Virus record (IMG/VR): IMGVR_UViG_2660238462_000002
DNA: 14,514 bases
Source: a virus
Lineage: Duplodnaviria; Heunggongvirae; Uroviricota; Caudoviricetes
Reading direction: 5' to 3' (one strand)
The stretch's first letter is position 1, and each line of letters starts with the position of its first letter. Below the pieces are notes generated by a model, which was given only the letters and a program-made list of their open reading frames with translations, did no database searches and had not been told where the DNA came from. The position numbers and the translations under genes were made by a program. This document shows, in pieces, positions 1,641 to 14,514 of the stretch.

Positions 1641-4112
1641 TTAAGAATCAGCCTGACTCGGGATCAGTTTTTGCCAGATAACTGAAACGTATTTTGCCTG
1701 GTAACGGGCGTCATCAAGTGCATTATGGCGCTCACCTTCGAATGGAATAGCCGTTCTGGCATCGAAGTCTATGGCTTTCCCCAGCTCAACGATTGTGCGT
1801 ACATCGCGATCGTTGTAGTAACGCCACGGGCAGGGGATCCCCTGCCGTTCGTATGAACGGCGCAAAATCGTGTTGTCGAAGTTGGCTCCATTTCCCCAGA
1901 CCTGAACAAAAAATTCACCGGAGTTTTCGTCGATAAATTCCCACAATTGTAACAGTGCATCATCTAACGGGATTTCATCGGTCATAATGGCAGATTGCGC
2001 TTCGCGTGATTGCTTAAGCCACCATTTAATGGTGTCCCGATCAATGACTCCGCCAGCAGTTTCCAGATCGATAGTCTTACTAAATTCCGGTCCCATATCT
2101 CCGGTTTGCGGATCGAAAAATATTGCACCTATTGAGATGATCGGGGCATCAGGATTTTTTCCCATGGTTTCAAGGTCGATCATTAGATGGTCACACGTCC
2201 TGCTGGTGGATGTGATTTCTTGATGACCGTTCACCTTAATTGAGTGATCTGCCGTCTCGCCAGTTTCATTATCGCTATCGTGATGCTGATTGCCGCCAGT
2301 GTTCTCCTTGTGTGGATGTTCAGCGCCTTCCATTTCCTCCGGATCATCTTCCTGAACTTCAATCTGATACTCTTCATCGAATGTTTCCTGGTATGTTGCG
2401 TCGCCCATTACCGCGCCACAATCAGGGCAGTTGCCGCCGCCGGTCTGACCGCAGGCGGTGCAGACTTTTTCCACTTCCTGTTGCGCCACTGATTCAGGCT
2501 GTTTCGTTTCTGGCTCGTTTTGTAACGCATTTGGGCTGTTTTGTTCCGCTTTTTGGTAGTTCCGTTCCGATTCATGCTGGTTCTGGTTCACAGAATCGCG
2601 GGTCTGGATCCCCTTAACCCATTTCGGATCATTCGGGTCACTAATCCCTTCAACAAATTCACCACGTGATGCAGCAAGCAACTTATCGGCGTCAGGCTGG
2701 ATGATATTGGCTGCCTGCATAATTTTGTTTACTTCGTCAGCGGTAACTTTTATCGGCTCTGGTTGTTCTGAATCTTCAGCGGTATCTACATTTTGCGGTA
2801 AGCCCGTGTATGTGCCATTTTTTCGGGCAAAATATTCTTCTTTTGTGATTTCAGTGGCGCCAGCAGCCAGTGCCTTATCCAGACCAGAAAGTTTGTTTGC
2901 GCGACCGTATTTTTCTCCGTCCTTATCTGCGAAGAGGAAATAGAACGGCCCCTCACGCTCTACAGATGGTTCAGCTTCCGGCGCGGTTTCATTTTTTGGG
3001 ATATCAGATACCTCAGTTTCCACTGCATCAGTTTGTGTTTCTGATGACTGGAGAACATCAACAGTGCCCAGGTCTGTTTCTTCATTCTCAAACACGCCCT
3101 TTGTCGTCAGGTATTCGCAGATATATTTGTTCAGTGCTACGGGATCTTTGTGAATGTCGATCGGACGCTCACGGACAAGGCCAAAAATAGTTTGGCGGTC
3201 GTAGCGAAGGGCATCAGGCTGTTTGCGCATTGATGCCGAGATACGCTTCCAGTCTTCGCGGTCGTTGTCGATAACTTCATTTTTTGCCCAGCGATGGATG
3301 CTGCCGTCAATGTTTCCGGCATCCACATCACCAGGCCAGAGAGCGTAGGCCAGTTCGTCATCCAGTGTTTTCCATGTCTGCTTGTATTCGCGATGAATGG
3401 CAGCAATGACCGGGCTGATTTTTCCTGTTGAATTTTCAGTGTACTGTTGATTGGCTCTGGCGCGGGCGAGATCAACAACAGACGTGTATTTTCCGGTTTC
3501 CTTGCGTTCACCTTCGCGACGTTTTTTCCAGATGCGCATCTCTGCCTGAATTTCGGGCCATTTAGCACCAGGAATACATTTATGCTTAACCCACCCAATG
3601 GCGTGCAACTTAAGCTCCGGATACATGGCGTTAACTTCTGGCATTTTCATCAACGCTTCAACGATATGTCCGTCGAATGTTGCCATGTCTTCCTGCAACA
3701 ATTCCTGTGCGCTAATAACCATATCAACGGTGATGTTTTCACATGTGTCGAACTTAACCATGACAGCGTTCTGTACTTCAGGGGCCAGCTTGTCAAAAGT
3801 GACGTTCATCGGATCGGATTCAGTCTCAACCGGGACAAAAGAAGCAGACTCCTCATCCCAGCGGTTTTCCTGCATATATTCAGCATCCCATGAATCGAGG
3901 GCAGGGCGGGGTATGCCAGGTTTATCCTCGCAGACAATAAATTTATAAGCGCAGTCCTGAGCAGCCGGATAATGTTCCAGGAATTGCCAGTGAAATTTTG
4001 CTCGAGCACGGCGTTCGTCGCCAGCTTCAATGGCTGTGGCTACAGCCACAGCGCCTTCTTCCCTTGTTGCCAGTTCGTCAGGAATAGCGGCGCAAATAAA
4101 GACTTTACTCAT
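1641..4112 (-). CDS. Large prophage exonuclease-like protein (823 aa) with C-terminal DEDDh 3'-5' exonuclease domain; of the kind often annotated exodeoxyribonuclease VIII
   Basis: C-terminal motifs HLMIDLETMG (Exo I), VWGNGANFDNTIL (Exo II) and HNALDDARY (Exo III). Central CTACGQ...CPDCG zinc-ribbon motif flanked by highly acidic low-complexity sequence. Start chosen at ATG 4112 (MSKVF...) because GAGG lies 9 nt upstream; the ORF track start at 4148 has no ribosome-binding site. Confidence 0.8.
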   Translation of the reverse strand: MSKVFICAAIPDELATREEGAVAVATAIEAGDERRARAKFHWQFLEHYPAAQDCAYKFIVCEDKPGIPRPALDSWDAEYMQENRWDEESASFVPVETESDPMNVTFDKLAPEVQNAVMVKFDTCENITVDMVISAQELLQEDMATFDGHIVEALMKMPEVNAMYPELKLHAIGWVKHKCIPGAKWPEIQAEMRIWKKRREGERKETGKYTSVVDLARARANQQYTENSTGKISPVIAAIHREYKQTWKTLDDELAYALWPGDVDAGNIDGSIHRWAKNEVIDNDREDWKRISASMRKQPDALRYDRQTIFGLVRERPIDIHKDPVALNKYICEYLTTKGVFENEETDLGTVDVLQSSETQTDAVETEVSDIPKNETAPEAEPSVEREGPFYFLFADKDGEKYGRANKLSGLDKALAAGATEITKEEYFARKNGTYTGLPQNVDTAEDSEQPEPIKVTADEVNKIMQAANIIQPDADKLLAASRGEFVEGISDPNDPKWVKGIQTRDSVNQNQHESERNYQKAEQNSPNALQNEPETKQPESVAQQEVEKVCTACGQTGGGNCPDCGAVMGDATYQETFDEEYQIEVQEDDPEEMEGAEHPHKENTGGNQHHDSDNETGETADHSIKVNGHQEITSTSRTCDHLMIDLETMGKNPDAPIISIGAIFFDPQTGDMGPEFSKTIDLETAGGVIDRDTIKWWLKQSREAQSAIMTDEIPLDDALLQLWEFIDENSGEFFVQVWGNGANFDNTILRRSYERQGIPCPWRYYNDRDVRTIVELGKAIDFDARTAIPFEGERHNALDDARYQAKYVSVIWQKLIPSQADS

Positions 4113-4204
4113 TTGTTTTAACCTCATGACAGATTTAAGGATGAACAAATCCCTGCCATTGCTGGCATATAAGAATGAAACCGGATATTTATTACGGAAC
4201 TGTT

Positions 4205-4396
4205 TTAAAGACCTGCCGGGATTTCGATATTATCCTGGTGAATAACTTTATCGACCGGGTAACAGTTACCGGGAATTTTCTGTTCGGTTGCTGCAGTCAT
4301 ACACTCCTGCATTGTCCTGTGAACACTGACTGCAATATCAACTGGCTCTCCGGAAACAAGAAAAACTGTCAGAACAAGCACAAATGCTGAATTCAT
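4205..4396 (-). CDS. ydfD: Small secreted/membrane protein with N-terminal signal peptide (63 aa), YdfD-like by position
   Basis: MNSAFVLVLTVFLVSG hydrophobic N-terminus; AAGGA 8 nt upstream of ATG 4396; start overlaps the dicB-like stop. Gene symbol is by position downstream of dicB as in Qin. Confidence 0.55.
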   Translation of the reverse strand: MNSAFVLVLTVFLVSGEPVDIAVSVHRTMQECMTAATEQKIPGNCYPVDKVIHQDNIEIPAGL

Positions 4397-8962: not shown

Positions 8963-9019
8963 GTGAAATTAGCTATCAGGCTTCAATTACCGCTGGCATT
9001 CGCATCAAAGGAGAGGAGC

Positions 9020-9376
9020 ATGGAAATAAAACCAGAGGATGAGTTAAGCAATATCGTTTTATTTCCGGTAAAAGAGGATGACCCTCGTAATCAGGTTAAT
9101 TTTCTTTATGAGCCATCGGAAAGACCATATTGTCATCACGCCTCTGTCCGGGTTGACGAAAAAGAGCGTCAGGTCCGCTGTAAAATCTGCGGTGCAGTTG
9201 TGGAGCCATTTGACTGGATGCTCTCTGTGGCGAAAAGAGAAACCAGACTGGCAGATGATGTAAGGCTCTTGCGTCAGGAGGAGCGGGAAAGGCGAAAAAA
9301 TATAGAAAAGCTAATTCAGATTGAGCGTAACGCGAAAGCGCGGATACGCAGGGCGACAAAATCCAGAACTGAATAA
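9020..9376 (+). CDS. Hypothetical zinc-ribbon protein (118 aa; 137 aa if the GTG at 8963 is used)
   Basis: GGAGAGGAG SD 5-7 nt upstream of ATG 9020. Motif YCHH...(13)...CKIC followed by a basic, coiled-coil-like tail (RLLRQEERERRKNIEKLIQIERNAKARIRR). Confidence 0.55.
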   Translation: MEIKPEDELSNIVLFPVKEDDPRNQVNFLYEPSERPYCHHASVRVDEKERQVRCKICGAVVEPFDWMLSVAKRETRLADDVRLLRQEERERRKNIEKLIQIERNAKARIRRATKSRTE

Positions 9377-9469: not shown

Positions 9470-9652
9470 ATGCGAAAGTTTAAAATAATTATTGAAACGG
9501 GAATAGCCGGTGGAGATTTCGAGGATGAATTCGAAGTGGATGATGATGCGACGCCTGATGAAATACATGACGAAGCAAAAGATATTTTCTTTAACTACTG
9601 CAATTACTCATATCACGAAATAAAAGACGAAGAGGAAGAACAAAATGGCTGA
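9470..9652 (+). CDS. Small highly acidic protein (60 aa, about 20 Asp/Glu against 5 Lys/Arg)
   Basis: ORF in an AT-rich segment; AGGAGG at 9441-9446 is separated from the ATG by a GC hairpin (9447-9462). Net charge about -15. Confidence 0.5.
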   Translation: MRKFKIIIETGIAGGDFEDEFEVDDDATPDEIHDEAKDIFFNYCNYSYHEIKDEEEEQNG

Positions 9653-9821
9653 TTTTGGTTCAACTAAATACAACGTCAGTTTTGAAGAATGGCATGAACT
9701 GTTAATGGACTATGCAGAGTTACGTGGTGGCAGTGCTGCTGATGCTGAAGCATGGCGTGATGATTATGAAGCAGGAAAAACTCCGGTCGAAGCATATTGT
9801 GATGAGTGGGGCGATGAATGA
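9645..9821 (+). CDS. Small acidic protein (58 aa), overlapping the upstream gene (ATGGCTGA)
   Basis: Hand-translated: MADFGSTKYNVSFEEWHELLMDYAELRGGSAADAEAWRDDYEAGKTPVEAYCDEWGDE. About 16 acidic against 4 basic residues. Start overlaps the stop of the 60-aa gene and its stop overlaps the next ATG (ATGA). Confidence 0.5.
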   Translation: MADFGSTKYNVSFEEWHELLMDYAELRGGSAADAEAWRDDYEAGKTPVEAYCDEWGDE

Positions 9822-10075
9822 GCGAGGTTAATTATCAGGAAGGGCATGAAACGGCGGGGCAAGCAAAAACAGTGGCATGGCGATATCGCTACGTGAAAAA
9901 AAAGGCGTTACGGACTTTCAGGGGAAGTAGTGGTCTGGTGACTGGAAATATGTACCGAAAAAAGAGGATTGTAACGACAGGCCGAACTATGAAATTCAGG
10001 CCTTATTCACTGCCCCGCCAGTCCCGGTTACATCAGAAGAACTGGTTAAAGCTGTGCACTTTTATGAACAACTAA
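9818..10075 (+). pseudogene. Possible disrupted or frameshift-dependent ORF; the protein-like C-terminal part is in the -1 frame, ending at 10134
   Basis: The frame from ATG 9818 looks protein-like at first, then turns basic and low-complexity. The -1 frame from 9930 to 10134 reads as good protein (WSGDWKYVPKKEDCNDRPNYEIQALFTAPPVPVTSEELVKAVHFYEQLKRENPPASGNLITDSQIRQ) but has no start codon. Two A_AAA_AAG heptamers lie in the 0 frame at 9898-9904 and 9958-9964. Confidence 0.3.
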
Positions 10076-10484: not shown

Positions 10485-10686
10485 ATACAGCGAACGCCAT
10501 TGGTTTAGTTGGATATTTACTGTGCCGGACAAAAACGGTTTGCGGGGAAATCTTAGTTAAGTAGAATGACTGCGGGTGCTTGAGGCTATCTGTCTCAGGC
10601 ATGAACACCAAAAGGCAGATAGAGAAAAGCCCCAGTTAACATTACGCGTCCTGCAAGACGCTTAACATTAATCTGAGGCCATATCT

Positions 10687-10746
10687 ATGCGACACATAGA
10701 GATTAGCCTCTTACGGACCGAAAGGTCAAGGAGAAGCAGGCTATGA
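10687..10746 (+). CDS. Short leader ORF (19 codons) ending at the hok start codon; possible mok-like coupling ORF
   Basis: ATG 10687 with GAGG 9 nt upstream; its TGA stop overlaps the hok ATG (ATGA). Canonical mok is longer and overlaps hok, so this is tentative. Confidence 0.3.
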   Translation: MRHIEISLLRTERSRRSRL

Positions 10747-10898
10747 AGCAGCAAAAGGCGATGTTAATCGCCCTGATCGTCATCTGTTTAACCGTCATAG
10801 TGACGGCACTGGTAACGAGGAAAGACCTCTGCGAGGTACGAATCCGAACCGGCCAGACGGAGGTCGCTGTCTTCACAGCTTACGAACCTGAGGAGTAA
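10743..10898 (+). CDS. hok: Hok/Gef-family type I toxin (51 aa)
   Basis: MKQQKAMLIALIVICLTVIVTALVTRKDLCEVRIRTGQTEVAVFTAYEPEE has the Hok/Gef family signature (transmembrane helix, then RKDLCEV...TEVAVFTAYE) and appears identical or nearly so to HokD/RelF as I recall it. Absent from the ORF track because it is under 60 aa. Confidence 0.85.
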   Translation: MKQQKAMLIALIVICLTVIVTALVTRKDLCEVRIRTGQTEVAVFTAYEPEE

Positions 10899-10966: not shown

Positions 10967-10993
10967 AACCCGCTTCGGCGGGTTTTGTTTTTT
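10967..10993 (+). terminator. Rho-independent terminator downstream of hok
   Basis: AACCCGC-TTCG-GCGGGTT hairpin followed by TTTGTTTTTT. Confidence 0.8.
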
Positions 10994-11065
10994 CCTGGCA
11001 TTCTGGTTTACAATTCGCACGCCAGCCTGAACAACTGGCACCTGCTGCGCCAGCAGAGACAACCG

Positions 11066-11344
11066 ATGGCGCACGATACCAAATTACACAATTCTAATGA
11101 TTCTGCCGTCTTTGCCAGTAGGTGCGGACGGCGTTTTCACGCATTCAAATCAGACTGGTTCCAGCATCCTCCATGCACTGAAGAGCAGGCGGAATGGATA
11201 ATTCAGTGTTACCGCAGGCGCGGATACGAGGTTAAGAAAGCTCTTAGCCTCGACTACCGTCACTGGATAATCTCAGTCAGACTCCCTTACTCCGAACGCC
11301 CACCGCGTTCATCCCGCACATACCAGCAACGGATCTGGAGGTAA
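11066..11344 (+). CDS. Hypothetical Cys/His-containing protein (92 aa), in the position of Qin rem
   Basis: ATG 11066 is the first start after the hok terminator; the ORF-track start at 10937 would read through that terminator. Stop lies 1 nt before the YdfU-like GTG start. Confidence 0.5.
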   Translation: MAHDTKLHNSNDSAVFASRCGRRFHAFKSDWFQHPPCTEEQAEWIIQCYRRRGYEVKKALSLDYRHWIISVRLPYSERPPRSSRTYQQRIWR

Positions 11345-11345
11345 C

Positions 11346-12395
11346 GTGCGGGTATTACTTCGACCTGTTCTGGTACCGGAACTCGGGGTGGTGATCGTTA
11401 AGCCGGGCCGTGAATCCATGCCGGTATTCCACAATACCCGGGTACTGGTGGAGCCGGAACCGAAAAGCATGCGTAATCTGCCGTCCGGGGTCGTTCCTGC
11501 CGTTCGCCAGCCGCTGGTGGAAGACAAAACATTGCTGCCGTTTTTCAGTAACGCACGGGTGATTCGTGCTGCTGGTGGTGCTGGTGCATTGTCTGACTGG
11601 CTGTTGCGCCATATTAAATCCTGCCAGTGGCCACACGGCGATTATCACCACAGTGAAACCGTCATTCACCGTTATGGTACCGGCGCAATGGTGTTGTGCT
11701 GGCACTGCGACAACCAGCTGCGTGACCAGACATCCGAATCACTCGAGCAACTTGCTCATCAAAACCTGTCAGCATGGATGATTGACGTCATCGGTCACGC
11801 AATAAGCGGTACGCAGGAGCGTGAATTATCTCTGGCTGAATTATCCTGGTGGGCGGTCCGAAATCAGGTGGCGGATGCGCTACCTGAAGCGGTATTACGT
11901 CGCTCGCTGGGATTACCAGCGGAAAAAATCCGCTCAATGTACCGCGAAAGCGACATCGTACCGGGAGAGCAGACCGCCACCAGCATATTGAAACAGCGCA
12001 CAAAAAATCTTGCACTGTTGCCTCACGCCCACCAGGAACAACACCCACTACAGGAAAGGACGGTGGTAAGCATCACCGTTGATCCTGAGTCTCCGGAATC
12101 TTTCATGAAGCTACCTAAACGTCGCCGCTGGGTTAAGGAGAAATACACTCGCTGGGTGAAGACACAGCCGTGTGCTTGCTGCGGTATGCCAGCCGACGAT
12201 CCGCATCATCTGATTGGTCACGGGCAGGGCGGAATGGGAACCAAAGCACATGATCTTTTTGTGTTGCCTTTATGCAGAAAGCATCACGACGAACTGCATA
12301 CGGATACCGTGGCATTTGAAGAGAAGTATGGCTCCCAACTGGAGCTGATTTTTCGATTTATCGATCACGCGCTGGCAATTGGTGTGCTGGCCTAA
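11346..12395 (+). CDS. ydfU: DUF968-family protein with C-terminal HNH-like nuclease motif (YdfU-like), 349 aa
   Basis: GGAGG 5 nt upstream of GTG 11346. Same length as Qin YdfU. C-terminal CACCG...DDPHHLIGHG...C..HHDELH is an HNH / zinc-finger nuclease signature. Sits immediately upstream of a Q-like gene, as in Qin. Confidence 0.75.
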   Translation: MRVLLRPVLVPELGVVIVKPGRESMPVFHNTRVLVEPEPKSMRNLPSGVVPAVRQPLVEDKTLLPFFSNARVIRAAGGAGALSDWLLRHIKSCQWPHGDYHHSETVIHRYGTGAMVLCWHCDNQLRDQTSESLEQLAHQNLSAWMIDVIGHAISGTQERELSLAELSWWAVRNQVADALPEAVLRRSLGLPAEKIRSMYRESDIVPGEQTATSILKQRTKNLALLPHAHQEQHPLQERTVVSITVDPESPESFMKLPKRRRWVKEKYTRWVKTQPCACCGMPADDPHHLIGHGQGGMGTKAHDLFVLPLCRKHHDELHTDTVAFEEKYGSQLELIFRFIDHALAIGVLA

Positions 12396-12412: not shown

Positions 12413-12461
12413 ATGCGTGATATTCAGATGGTTCTTGAGCGTTGGGGAGCGTGGGCGGCTA
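12413..12461 (+). CDS. Antitermination protein Q-like, 5' fragment only (16 codons), interrupted by the N run
   Basis: GGAG 7 nt upstream of ATG 12413. MRDIQMVLERWGAWAA matches the N-terminus of lambdoid Q-family proteins (Qin quuQ-like) as recalled. The reading frame runs into N at 12462. Confidence 0.65.
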
Positions 12462-12471
12462 NNNNNNNNNN
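12462..12471. other. Run of 10 ambiguous bases (N): assembly gap or masked sequence
   Basis: Seen directly in the sequence. It separates the prophage Q fragment from the asnB 3' flank. Confidence 0.99.
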
Positions 12472-12802
12472 TCTTTTTTTTCGCGATACCTTATCGGCGT
12501 TGCGGGGCGCATTATGCGTATAGAGCCTTGCAGCGTCAACCTCTTTTTCAAGGAAAATTGCTCGAAAGTGACTGTTTGGTTAGGTTGCGAACAGCGTGGC
12601 GCTATATTCGTCAATTATTGTTTACTTTGTGTTTTTTCCCACCCTACAGCCATTCTTTTGTCATACAGGATGAAATTCGGAATTTAACAATAGTGGTGGG
12701 AAATTAATCTATGAAATACTGGCCTACAGTGATGAGTTGTCAAACAGTGATGTGGCAAACCCGGAACATTTCCTTACTGCATATCAGAATCAACAAGCAC
12801 CT

Positions 12803-12838
12803 CAATAACTGAAACAGCCCCGGATTTCACCGGGGCTG
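12803..12838 (-). terminator. Intrinsic terminator downstream of asnB (hairpin CAGCCCCGG/CCGGGGCTG), possibly bidirectional
   Basis: 9-bp GC-rich inverted repeat at 12815-12838 with T-rich flanks on both strands, 12 bp past the asnB stop. Confidence 0.7.
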
Positions 12839-12849
12839 TTTCGCATTTC

Positions 12850-14514
12850 TTACTTATACGCCGACTGGTGAACACCAACCGCGCGACCAGACGGATCGTC
12901 CATTTTCTTGAACGCTTCATCCCATTCGATCGCTTTAGCGGAAGAACAAGCGACGGAAGGACCGCCCGGCACGCACTCAGCGGCGCTCGGAAGCGGGAAT
13001 AGTTCTTCAAAGATCTCCCGATACAAGTACGCTTCTTTAGAGGTTGGCGTGTTGTACGGGAAGCGGAAGCGGGCAGTTTCCAGTTGCTGATCAGAAACCT
13101 GCTGCGCAGCCACTTCTTTCAGGGTGTCGATCCAACTGTAACCGACGCCATCGGAGAACTGCTCTTTCTGCCGCCAGGCCACGCTTGCAGGCAGATACGC
13201 TTCAAAACATTCACGCAGGATGTGTTTTTCCATTTTGCCGTTACCGCACATTTTATCCTGTGGGTTAATACGCATCGCCACATCAAGGAATTTTTTGTCG
13301 AGGAACGGAACGCGTGCTTCCACGCCCCAGGCTGACATCGCTTTGTTGGCACGCGCGCAGTCATACATATGCAGGGCCAGCAGTTTACGCACCGTCTCTT
13401 CATGCAGTTCTTTGGCATTCGGTGCTTTGTGGAAGTAAAGATAACCGCCGAACACTTCATCAGAACCTTCACCGGACAGCACCATTTTAATGCCCATCGC
13501 CTTGATCTTACGCGACATTAAATACATCGGTGTTGAAGCGCGAATAGTGGTCACATCATAAGTTTCGATGTGGTAAATCACGTCGCGGATGGCATCCAGA
13601 CCTTCCTGTACAGTGAAGTGAATTTCGTGATGCACCGTGCCCAGATGGTTTGCCACTTCCTGGGCTGCTTTCAGATCCGGTGAACCCGGCAGACCTACAG
13701 CAAAGGAGTGTAACTGCGGCCACCAGGCTTCAGAGCGTTCCTGATCTTCCACGCGACGGGCTGCGTATTTCTTGGTGATAGCGGAAATAATTGAGGAATC
13801 CAGACCACCAGAAAGCAGCACACCGTAAGGCACATCAGACATCAGATGGCTTTTAACTGAATCTTCCAGTGCCTGACGCAGCTCGTTTTTGTCGGTCACG
13901 TTATCTTTCACCGCATCGTAGTCGAACCAGTCGCGATGATAGTAAGAACGGATTTCGCCGTCCTGGCTCCACAAATAGCTCCCCGCCGGGAACTCTTTAA
14001 TCGTGCGGCAAACTGGCACCAGCGCTTTCATTTCTGAGGCCACATACAGCTGACCGTGTTCGTCATACCCCATATACAGTGGGATGATCCCCAGATGGTC
14101 GCGACCAATCAGGTAGGCATCTTTTTCGCTGTCGTACAGTGCAAAGGCAAACATGCCCTGCAAGTCGTCGAGAAATTCCGGCCCTTTTTCCTGATACAGC
14201 GCGAGGATCACTTCACAGTCAGACCCGGTCTGGAACTGGTAACGATCGCCATATTCGGCGCGCAATGCCTGGTGGTTGTAGATTTCACCGTTTACCGCCA
14301 GTACGTGGGTTTTTTGTTGGTTGTAGAGAGGTTGCGCCCCCGCGTTAACGTCAACAATTGACAGACGTTCGTGGGCGAGAATGGCGTTATCGCTGGCATA
14401 AATACCGGACCAGTCCGGGCCACGATGACGCATCAGGCGTGACAGCTCGAGGGCTTTCTTACGCAGCTCAACTGCGTCTGTTTTGATATCGAATACGCCA
14501 AAAATTGAACACAT
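12850..14514 (-). CDS. asnB: Asparagine synthetase B (glutamine-hydrolysing), complete 554 aa
   Basis: N-terminal MCSIFGV (class II amidotransferase with Cys2), SGGLDSS PP-loop motif, full-length enterobacterial AsnB sequence. Start codon is at the last three bases of the window. Confidence 0.97.
   Translation of the reverse strand: MCSIFGVFDIKTDAVELRKKALELSRLMRHRGPDWSGIYASDNAILAHERLSIVDVNAGAQPLYNQQKTHVLAVNGEIYNHQALRAEYGDRYQFQTGSDCEVILALYQEKGPEFLDDLQGMFAFALYDSEKDAYLIGRDHLGIIPLYMGYDEHGQLYVASEMKALVPVCRTIKEFPAGSYLWSQDGEIRSYYHRDWFDYDAVKDNVTDKNELRQALEDSVKSHLMSDVPYGVLLSGGLDSSIISAITKKYAARRVEDQERSEAWWPQLHSFAVGLPGSPDLKAAQEVANHLGTVHHEIHFTVQEGLDAIRDVIYHIETYDVTTIRASTPMYLMSRKIKAMGIKMVLSGEGSDEVFGGYLYFHKAPNAKELHEETVRKLLALHMYDCARANKAMSAWGVEARVPFLDKKFLDVAMRINPQDKMCGNGKMEKHILRECFEAYLPASVAWRQKEQFSDGVGYSWIDTLKEVAAQQVSDQQLETARFRFPYNTPTSKEAYLYREIFEELFPLPSAAECVPGGPSVACSSAKAIEWDEAFKKMDDPSGRAVGVHQSAYK

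Follow-up and report, generated by a model that had tools for sequence, protein, structure and literature searches.

A YdfU-like DUF968 protein with a predicted HNH nuclease domain and a small conserved upstream protein at the end of the early region of a lambdoid prophage of Escherichia coli

The gene pair upstream of the antiterminator gene Q

The window of this study (IMG/VR record IMGVR_UViG_2660238462_000002) is a stretch of 14,514 nucleotides (nt) which consists of E. coli DNA. Positions 1 to ~12462 represent the left and early part of a Qin/Rac-like lambdoid prophage. At the end of this part, two genes precede the gene of the Q antiterminator (Table 1). They encode a small protein of 92 amino acids (aa) and a YdfU-like protein of 349 aa, which contains the Pfam domain DUF968 and is referred to as YdfU in the following. 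An earlier note, made from the sequence alone, had described both as a coupled pair and suggested that they form either a defence or exclusion module or a phage DNA-processing enzyme.

The coordinates confirmed the claim that the stop codon of the 92-aa open reading frame (ORF) and the GTG start of ydfU are 1 nt apart. The GGAGG motif lies 4 nt upstream of the GTG and is followed by TAA, a C at position 11345 and the start codon. The NCBI pipeline annotates the same two coding sequences with the same spacing in related E. coli genomes, in the order hokD, hypothetical protein, ydfU and Q; of 5426 complete E. coli genomes, 4109 cover this block to at least 80%. Homology speaks for the GTG start: homologues down to 26% identity begin at the position aligned with it (distant ones use ATG), and residues 1-24 of YdfU, which are modelled as beta strands, are conserved. 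Both are real genes and not chance ORFs; for the small gene, this follows from 380 homologue clusters and from a ratio of non-synonymous to synonymous substitution rates (dN/dS) of 0.06-0.18 in the core of the protein.

Table 1. Features of the gene pair and its immediate surroundings (positions refer to the window).
Feature	Position	Strand	Details and basis
Intrinsic terminator-like hairpin with T-run, between hokD and the 92-aa gene	10967-10994	+	7-pair stem, 5 GC pairs, tail TTGTTTTTTC
92-aa small protein gene (phrog_1212)	11066-11344	+	ATG 11066, TAA 11342-11344
GGAGG Shine-Dalgarno sequence of ydfU	11337-11341	+	inside the end of the 92-aa ORF; read from the sequence
YdfU-like DUF968 gene, 349 aa	11346-12395	+	GTG 11346, TAA 12393-12395; Pfam, PHROG, AlphaFold2
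N-terminal domain of YdfU, residues 1-224	11346-12017	+	AlphaFold2; no Pfam family over 1-159
Four-ligand Cys/His site C93, C/H101, C118, H/C121 with W119 and D122	11622-11708	+	26-sequence alignment
Disordered linker, residues 225-242	12018-12071	+	predicted local distance difference test score (pLDDT) <50; variable and gap-rich in the alignment
HNH (beta-beta-alpha-metal) core, residues 275-318	12168-12299	+	CxxC C276/C279, H287-H288, D303, C310, H313, H314, H318
Q antiterminator gene, first 50 nt only	12413-12462	+	sequence; 'antiterminator Q family protein' starts 17 nt after ydfU in related genomes
Run of 10 N	12463-12472		cuts Q after ~17 codons

The HNH domain of YdfU

YdfU matches DUF968 (PF06147) with residues 160-346 over the full model (1-171; E 1.2e-76, 257 bits at a cut-off of 27.8) and PHROG 96, 'HNH endonuclease', over its full length (E 3.9e-174). 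Among the matches listed, it showed 78-92% identity to full-length DUF968 proteins of E. coli. An exhaustive HMMER search yielded 2878 cluster representatives; the most distant full-length homologues share ~26% identity. No NCBIfam model matched either the 92-aa or the 349-aa protein, and a sequence search of the PDB with YdfU alone gave no match. When the family profile was compared to the PDB, YbcO was the best sequence match (E 0.044).

An AlphaFold2 model, which was built on 26 diverse sequences (mean pLDDT 84.2), divides YdfU into an N-terminal domain, a disordered linker and a C-terminal domain (Table 1). The HNH signature claimed in the earlier note is present: C276-A-C-C279...H287-H288...C310-R-K-H313-H314-D-E-L-H318 (nt 12171-12299) lies inside the DUF968 match, and the C-terminal region is predicted to adopt the beta-beta-alpha-metal fold of HNH domains. 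Residue conservation was counted in an alignment of 26 sequences reaching 26% identity. The zinc and catalytic set (C276, C279, C310, H313, H288, H314 and H318) is kept in 21-26 of these homologues; H288, H314, H318, C276, D303 and C310 are kept in 22-26, and position 313 is Cys or His in 21. A P1-like subgroup, to which PdcB of phage P1 belongs, is without the HH motif.

A characterised protein with a related HNH domain is Gp16 of the Staphylococcus phage PhiNM1, which was described in January 2026 as an early protein with a NinB-like N-terminal domain and an HNH C-terminal domain (PMC12817073). Gp16 is a DNA nickase that binds RecA and is stimulated by it; it stops host replication, and the phage requires it to propagate efficiently (PMC12817073). 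In Pfam it scores 4.9e-117 with HNHc_6 (PF16784) and also lies above the DUF968 threshold, with 29.1 bits. Its HNH region shares 37% identical residues with that of YdfU over 59 residues (E 5e-9), and C145, C148, H157, C181, H184, H185 and H189 of Gp16 correspond to C276, C279, H288, C310, H313, H314 and H318 of YdfU. Six of these Gp16 residues (not C145) have been mutated: zinc-site mutants abolished growth inhibition, H185A and H189A partly relieved it, H157A had no effect, and DNA cleavage in vitro depended on C181 (PMC12817073).

Since its residues align with those of Gp16 and most of them are kept in the homologues, YdfU of the window looks catalytically competent. A nuclease activity is inferred, as are the substrate and the timing of expression proposed below. 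The statement that DUF968 is functionally undefined holds for YdfU itself, which is listed among the uncharacterised genes of K-12 (PMC11551758). The family, however, was placed together with YbcO in group 7 of the His-Me finger proteins, and a role in recombination was proposed (PMC5714182). The role favoured below had also been put forward on the grounds of domain fusions to Erf, Rad52 and RusA (PMC4118853, PMC5714182).

The N-terminal domain of YdfU

Roughly the first 260 residues had been called uncharacterised in the earlier note. The part free of Pfam families is shorter, whereas the modelled domain reaches to residue 224, and for residues 1-224 no relative with a solved structure was found. 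The domain contains a four-ligand Cys/His site: C93 and C118 are present in all 26 homologues, position 101 is Cys or His in 25 and position 121 is His or Cys in 26. It is predicted to lie on a beta-hairpin (strands 105-110 and 113-118) and a helix (119-125). This pattern is conserved more than the HNH zinc site and is kept in the subgroup without the catalytic histidines. Judged from these residues, it is probably a structural zinc site, albeit a putative one.

An internal duplication, considered because C93...LCWHCDNQL resembles C276...LCRKHHDELH, was not supported (hhalign P ~0.2, probability 0.3%; BLAST ~10 bits). A weak second BLAST segment aligns the HNH region of Gp16 with residues 93-118 of YdfU (E 0.089). 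An Orf/NinB-like N-terminal domain, as in DUF968 proteins of Gram-positive bacteria and in Gp16, was also rejected (no match to 1pc6 and none to YbcN), and an Orf (RAGNYA) domain fused to HNH, as in the Orf-HNH recombinases (PMC4118853), was not found in YdfU. The region which precedes the HNH core (residues 160-250) is helical or disordered in the model.

In a few proteins (P0310, P0311, P0264 and P0245), the N-terminal domain of YdfU is fused to tail-fibre, tail-tip (J) or portal domains. These fusions come mostly from single-member clusters, were judged to be probable frameshift or assembly chimeras and were not used.

Genomic position, distribution and expression

The surroundings of YdfU were compared in 80 loci from different Enterobacterales genomes. 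The position directly upstream of Q, which had been pointed out before, was borne out: in 73 of 76 loci, the gene 3' of YdfU codes for a Q antiterminator, which belongs to one of four families, and the window itself holds the first 50 nt of Q. RusA is encoded within two genes of YdfU in 50 of the 80 loci and was detected with DLP12 RusA as tblastn query in 45. NinG/Rap, NinB/Orf, YbcO, YbcN and NinH were detected by tblastn in none of them.

Most E. coli genomes contain YdfU-type genes, frequently more than one, and isolated temperate phages carry them too (SfV orf45, SfII, mEp390 gp45, cdtI, HannyBb with 96% identity, and Stx2c phages). In Shiga-toxin phages, YdfU is encoded directly upstream of Q, the regulator of toxin and lysis expression. 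Some loci of enterobacterial prophages whose YdfU is 50-90% identical come from assemblies labelled as Veillonella, Geobacteraceae, Chryseobacterium, Vagococcus and Actinomycetes (L009, L017, L023, L053 and L073); contamination or mis-binning is the probable reason.

A terminator-like hairpin separates the pair from hokD, and the + strand from this hairpin to position 11066 showed no sigma-70-like promoter. The expression of the pair is explained most simply if the early transcript, once anti-terminated, reads through into it. The region upstream of ydfU of K-12 was reported to be among the most powerful of the Rho-dependent terminators, by which toxic prophage genes are silenced (PMC9160355).

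The small protein and its relation to YdfU

The small protein consists of a conserved 66-aa core (residues 27-92), which is matched by PHROG 1212, a basic Pro-rich tail and a variable extension (residues 1-26). A profile search gave the homologue clusters mentioned above in Escherichia, Shigella, Citrobacter, Klebsiella, Atlantibacter and Pluralibacter. Outside Escherichia, the protein comprises 66-68 aa; the 26-residue extension was added in Escherichia. The dN/dS of the core indicates purifying selection; the extension is almost neutral (0.4-0.77) and modelled as disordered. The protein is modelled as a beta-alpha-beta-beta domain without a metal site. The term 'Cys/His-rich', by which the gene had been described, is literally correct (3 Cys and 5 His in 92 residues), but it means little, because no Cys is conserved across the genera and no zinc motif is present. 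C37 is the sole Cys conserved within Escherichia, and only H34 is nearly invariant.

K-12 MG1655 (NC_000913.3, ~1644307-1644582) possesses an intact 92-codon homologue (76% identical), which is unannotated in the reference and sits in the 346-bp 'intergenic' stretch between rem and ydfU. Rem of K-12 was considered as its counterpart and rejected; rem is a separate gene, with an insertion site after hokD and before the unannotated ORF. PdcA of P1 was rejected as well, as it shows no similarity (hidden Markov model score -0.8 bits).

The earlier note had regarded the small protein as a partner of the nuclease. Co-occurrence was therefore checked from both sides, in the 80 YdfU loci, where the small gene was sought within 4 kb, and in 153 viral contigs which carry the small gene and enough downstream sequence. 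The idea stood in so far as the small gene nearly always precedes a gene for a junction-type nuclease; this may, however, be YdfU, RusA or NinG, and most YdfU genes are without it. It was found in 22 of the 80 loci and was absent from 58. The gene immediately 5' of YdfU encodes a Rha/ANT antirepressor (28), RusA (19), the small protein (9), KilA-N (8), a DNA methylase (7) or others, and in 74 of 78 loci the start of YdfU either overlaps this gene, mostly by 4 nt, or directly adjoins it. Because YdfU is packed this tightly with nearly any preceding gene, the 1-nt spacing in the window is generic and does not indicate a dedicated pair.

In the contigs, YdfU follows downstream on the same strand in 140 of 153 and is directly adjacent in 85. 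A gap of 360-365 nt precedes it in 55, and this gap holds RusA where genes were called. The small gene is followed by RusA and then Q, without YdfU, in 8 contigs; in 5 others NinG/Rap follows directly and then Q, again without YdfU, and a YbcN/Orf gene lies upstream. A mutual, obligate co-occurrence, as in a toxin-antitoxin-like or inhibitor pair, was thus not found (22 of 80 loci; 13 of 153 contigs without YdfU). The gene order also varies: it is small gene, RusA, DUF968 and Q in Citrobacter, LexA-like gene, small gene, DUF968 and Q in Klebsiella, and small gene, DUF968, RusA and Q in a further group of E. coli prophages. The small protein is thus tied to the cluster of junction nucleases in the nin region and not to YdfU in particular.

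In the contigs of the NinG type (IMG/VR, L262-L267, ~1750-4300), the small-protein homologues are 37-47% identical to the closest family member tested; these contigs are the lambda-type version of the same slot. One viral contig (L197, ~2449-3540) contains two copies of the small-protein family with a RusA gene and a 122-aa ORF between them, and a short basic 87-aa ORF follows where YdfU would stand.

Interpretation and alternative explanations

The reality of both genes, their family membership, the predicted HNH fold, the conservation of its residues and the synteny are established, and the pair belongs to a known gene family in its usual place; it is not a new kind of system. As the best explanation, which we hold to be somewhat better than an even guess, the two are the last genes before Q in a nin-type region, and YdfU is an HNH nuclease which processes phage DNA during lytic growth. 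The pair would thus end the delayed-early (nin-type) region of the Qin/Rac-like prophage. YdfU would consist of an N-terminal domain of unknown fold with a Cys/His site, a linker and a zinc-stabilised HNH domain with intact catalytic residues, and it would be made only once the prophage is induced or a cell infected, when the early transcript reads through. It may nick or cut branched or RecA-bound DNA, that is, intermediates of phage recombination and late replication and possibly also host DNA, while the zinc-type N-terminal domain probably supplies the targeting. In the same slot, lambda has Rap/NinG for this work and DLP12 presumably has YbcO, usually in the company of the Holliday-junction resolvase RusA. 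The 92-aa protein would be a separate conserved nin-region gene which accompanies whichever junction nuclease fills the slot. Of the two functions suggested in the earlier note, the phage DNA-processing enzyme is thus the one supported: by the predicted HNH fold, the residue match to Gp16, the nin slot before Q, RusA in the vicinity and the lack of NinG, Orf and YbcO in the 80 loci.

Several observations weigh against this explanation. The matches of YdfU to HNHc_6 (23.9 bits, cut-off 26.6) and RecA_dep_nuc (15.4 bits, cut-off 26.9) lie below the Pfam thresholds, and no published assay of YdfU was found in the literature. The absence of NinG, Orf and YbcO refers to tblastn only, at E 1e-4 and within 4 kb on either side. 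YdfU cannot simply be 'the resolvase', because it usually co-occurs with RusA. The explanation does not account for the N-terminal domain, which makes up two thirds of YdfU and is its most conserved part. Since this domain is not NinB/Orf-like, RecA dependence can hardly be transferred from Gp16 or from the RecA-dependent endonuclease Ref of P1. Finally, the homologue PdcB is dispensable for plating of P1 (PMC10695390, PMC10067587); this says little, because PdcB has lost the HH motif.

YdfU might also be a host-takeover nuclease of the Gp16 or Ref type, which would bind RecA, nick the host chromosome early after induction and arrest host replication in favour of that of the phage, without processing phage recombination intermediates. 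We regard this as unlikely, although it comes closest among the alternatives. The N-terminal domain of YdfU is a different structured module, neither the NinB-like domain of Gp16 nor the disordered basic N-terminus of Ref, and YdfU is encoded where the early operon ends, beside Q and RusA, and not among the immediate-early genes. A dedicated two-component system, in which the 92-aa protein would be a specific regulator of YdfU (an inhibitor, an immunity or antitoxin-like protein or an activating subunit) kept stoichiometric by translational coupling, is suggested by the stop and start codons 1 nt apart, by the Shine-Dalgarno sequence inside the upstream ORF and by the frequent downstream position of YdfU in the contigs. 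The conserved C-terminal tail of the small protein, modelled at low confidence as might be expected of a peptide that folds on its partner, would fit as well. The distribution speaks against it: most YdfU loci are without the small gene, RusA is inserted between the two in 55 contigs, RusA and Q or NinG replace YdfU in others, and YdfU abuts Rha/ANT, RusA, KilA-N and methylase genes in the same manner. Such a system therefore appears quite improbable.

A module for anti-phage defence or superinfection exclusion which the prophage expresses, the other function suggested in the earlier note, was not supported and is very improbable. In PADLOC-DB v2, no family matched either protein at E ≤0.1, and HNH matches to defence proteins were weaker than that to Ref, with Cap5 and McrA also below YbcO. 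The pair has a fixed syntenic place inside the early operon, unlike a moron-like unit, and its neighbours are genes of recombination and regulation. The terminator upstream, the lack of a promoter-like site on the coding strand, the Rho-dependent silencing reported for K-12 (PMC9160355) and the missing PADLOC match all argue against a defence module expressed in the lysogen. Free-standing homing endonucleases and accessory proteins of terminase in cos cleavage are both frequent roles of phage HNH proteins, and phage records say just 'HNH endonuclease'; for YdfU, we give these two the least credit of all. The synteny and operon packing are conserved across Enterobacterales, as is the large N-terminal domain, and the homologues reach to Vibrio phages and P1, unlike sporadic homing insertions. 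As to terminase, Q and the lysis cassette stand between YdfU and the terminase genes, and SfV has a separate HNH protein (orf53) beside its packaging genes.

A more far-reaching proposal can also be made, which we consider a long shot. The N-terminal domain might be a new zinc-binding domain for recognition of DNA or protein, possibly a degenerate second beta-beta-alpha module, which aims the HNH nickase at a specific structure or host factor at the switch from early to late expression. The phrog_1212 protein might then be an accessory subunit shared by YdfU, RusA and Rap, and the placement upstream of Q or of lpa, the late promoter activator gene of P1, would be functional and not historical.

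Other genes of the window

The prophage part also encodes an integrase, an excisionase, an 835-aa exonuclease, a CI-like repressor, Cro and YdaT, as well as a replication gene, DUF977, DUF7167 and hok/sok. The hok/sok type I toxin-antitoxin locus is complete (10574-10898) and is followed, just upstream of the pair, by the strong terminator-like hairpin at 10967-10994; the sok RNA corresponds to RF01794 (106.7 bits), and hokD encodes 51 aa with the Pfam domain HOK_GEF. The sole Pfam match of the 835-aa 'exonuclease' (1641-4148, - strand) is a C-terminal Rv2179c-like 3'-5' exoribonuclease domain, and its ~650 N-terminal residues are without a family match. Small ORFs of the early region (8963-9376 and 9470-10075) show weak family matches or none. 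They comprise a 137-aa ORF with a weak match to a TFIIB-type zinc ribbon, DUF7167 and ORFs of 58 and 85 aa, and are common to other E. coli prophages which bear the same gene pair.

The asnB region (12473-14514), which follows the run of N, matches E. coli chromosomes with 100% identity. The prophage of complete genomes has a chromosomal site of its own, away from asnB. Since the two are not adjacent there, the junction at the N-run looks like a scaffold join and not like a real boundary between prophage and chromosome.

Comparison with known systems

The closest known counterpart is YdfU of the cryptic prophage Qin of K-12 (b1560, PF06147), the namesake of DUF968, which agrees with the protein of the window in family, length (349 aa) and position. 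The Qin order is hokD, rem, the unannotated 92-aa ORF, ydfU and Q, and the window differs in being without rem. YbcO of DLP12 (DUF1364, PDB 3g27) shares His-Me finger group 7 with DUF968 (PMC5714182), but it is a stand-alone HNH domain of 96 aa without the N-terminal domain, and it was never found in a YdfU locus (0 of 80). Lambda Rap/NinG (PF05766), a branch-specific endonuclease, occupies the same slot, where the nin region ends and Q follows. It is, like YdfU, a His-Me finger protein (PMC5714182), and the two were never seen together; it differs in domain architecture, shows no detectable sequence similarity, and YdfU gives no match to the Pfam family NinG.

P1 Ref (PDB 3plw, PF16786) is an HNH endonuclease that depends on RecA (PMC4330346, PMC3973344) with a disordered basic N-terminus, in contrast to the 224 structured residues of YdfU. 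Gp16 resembles YdfU as an early phage gene with RusA nearby and differs in host phylum and genome position, and its NinB/Orf-like N-terminal domain is unrelated to that of YdfU. PdcB of P1, on the other hand, is a full-length homologue including the N-terminal domain (~26% identity over 91% of the query), in which the HH catalytic motif is lost and the N-terminal Cys/His site is kept. pdcB lies directly upstream of lpa, as YdfU does upstream of Q. The P1 genes pdcA (66 aa), pdcB and lpa (2177-3989) mirror the order of small gene, YdfU and late-gene activator, but PdcA is unrelated to the 92-aa protein.

To these known systems, the present analysis adds that the intact HNH active site of YdfU matches that of the nickase characterised in 2026, that its N-terminal domain possesses a conserved Cys/His site of its own and no solved relative, and that, by its position, YdfU is an alternative to Rap/NinG and YbcO. 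It further assigns the small gene upstream, which lacks an annotation in K-12, to a conserved family which accompanies junction nucleases.

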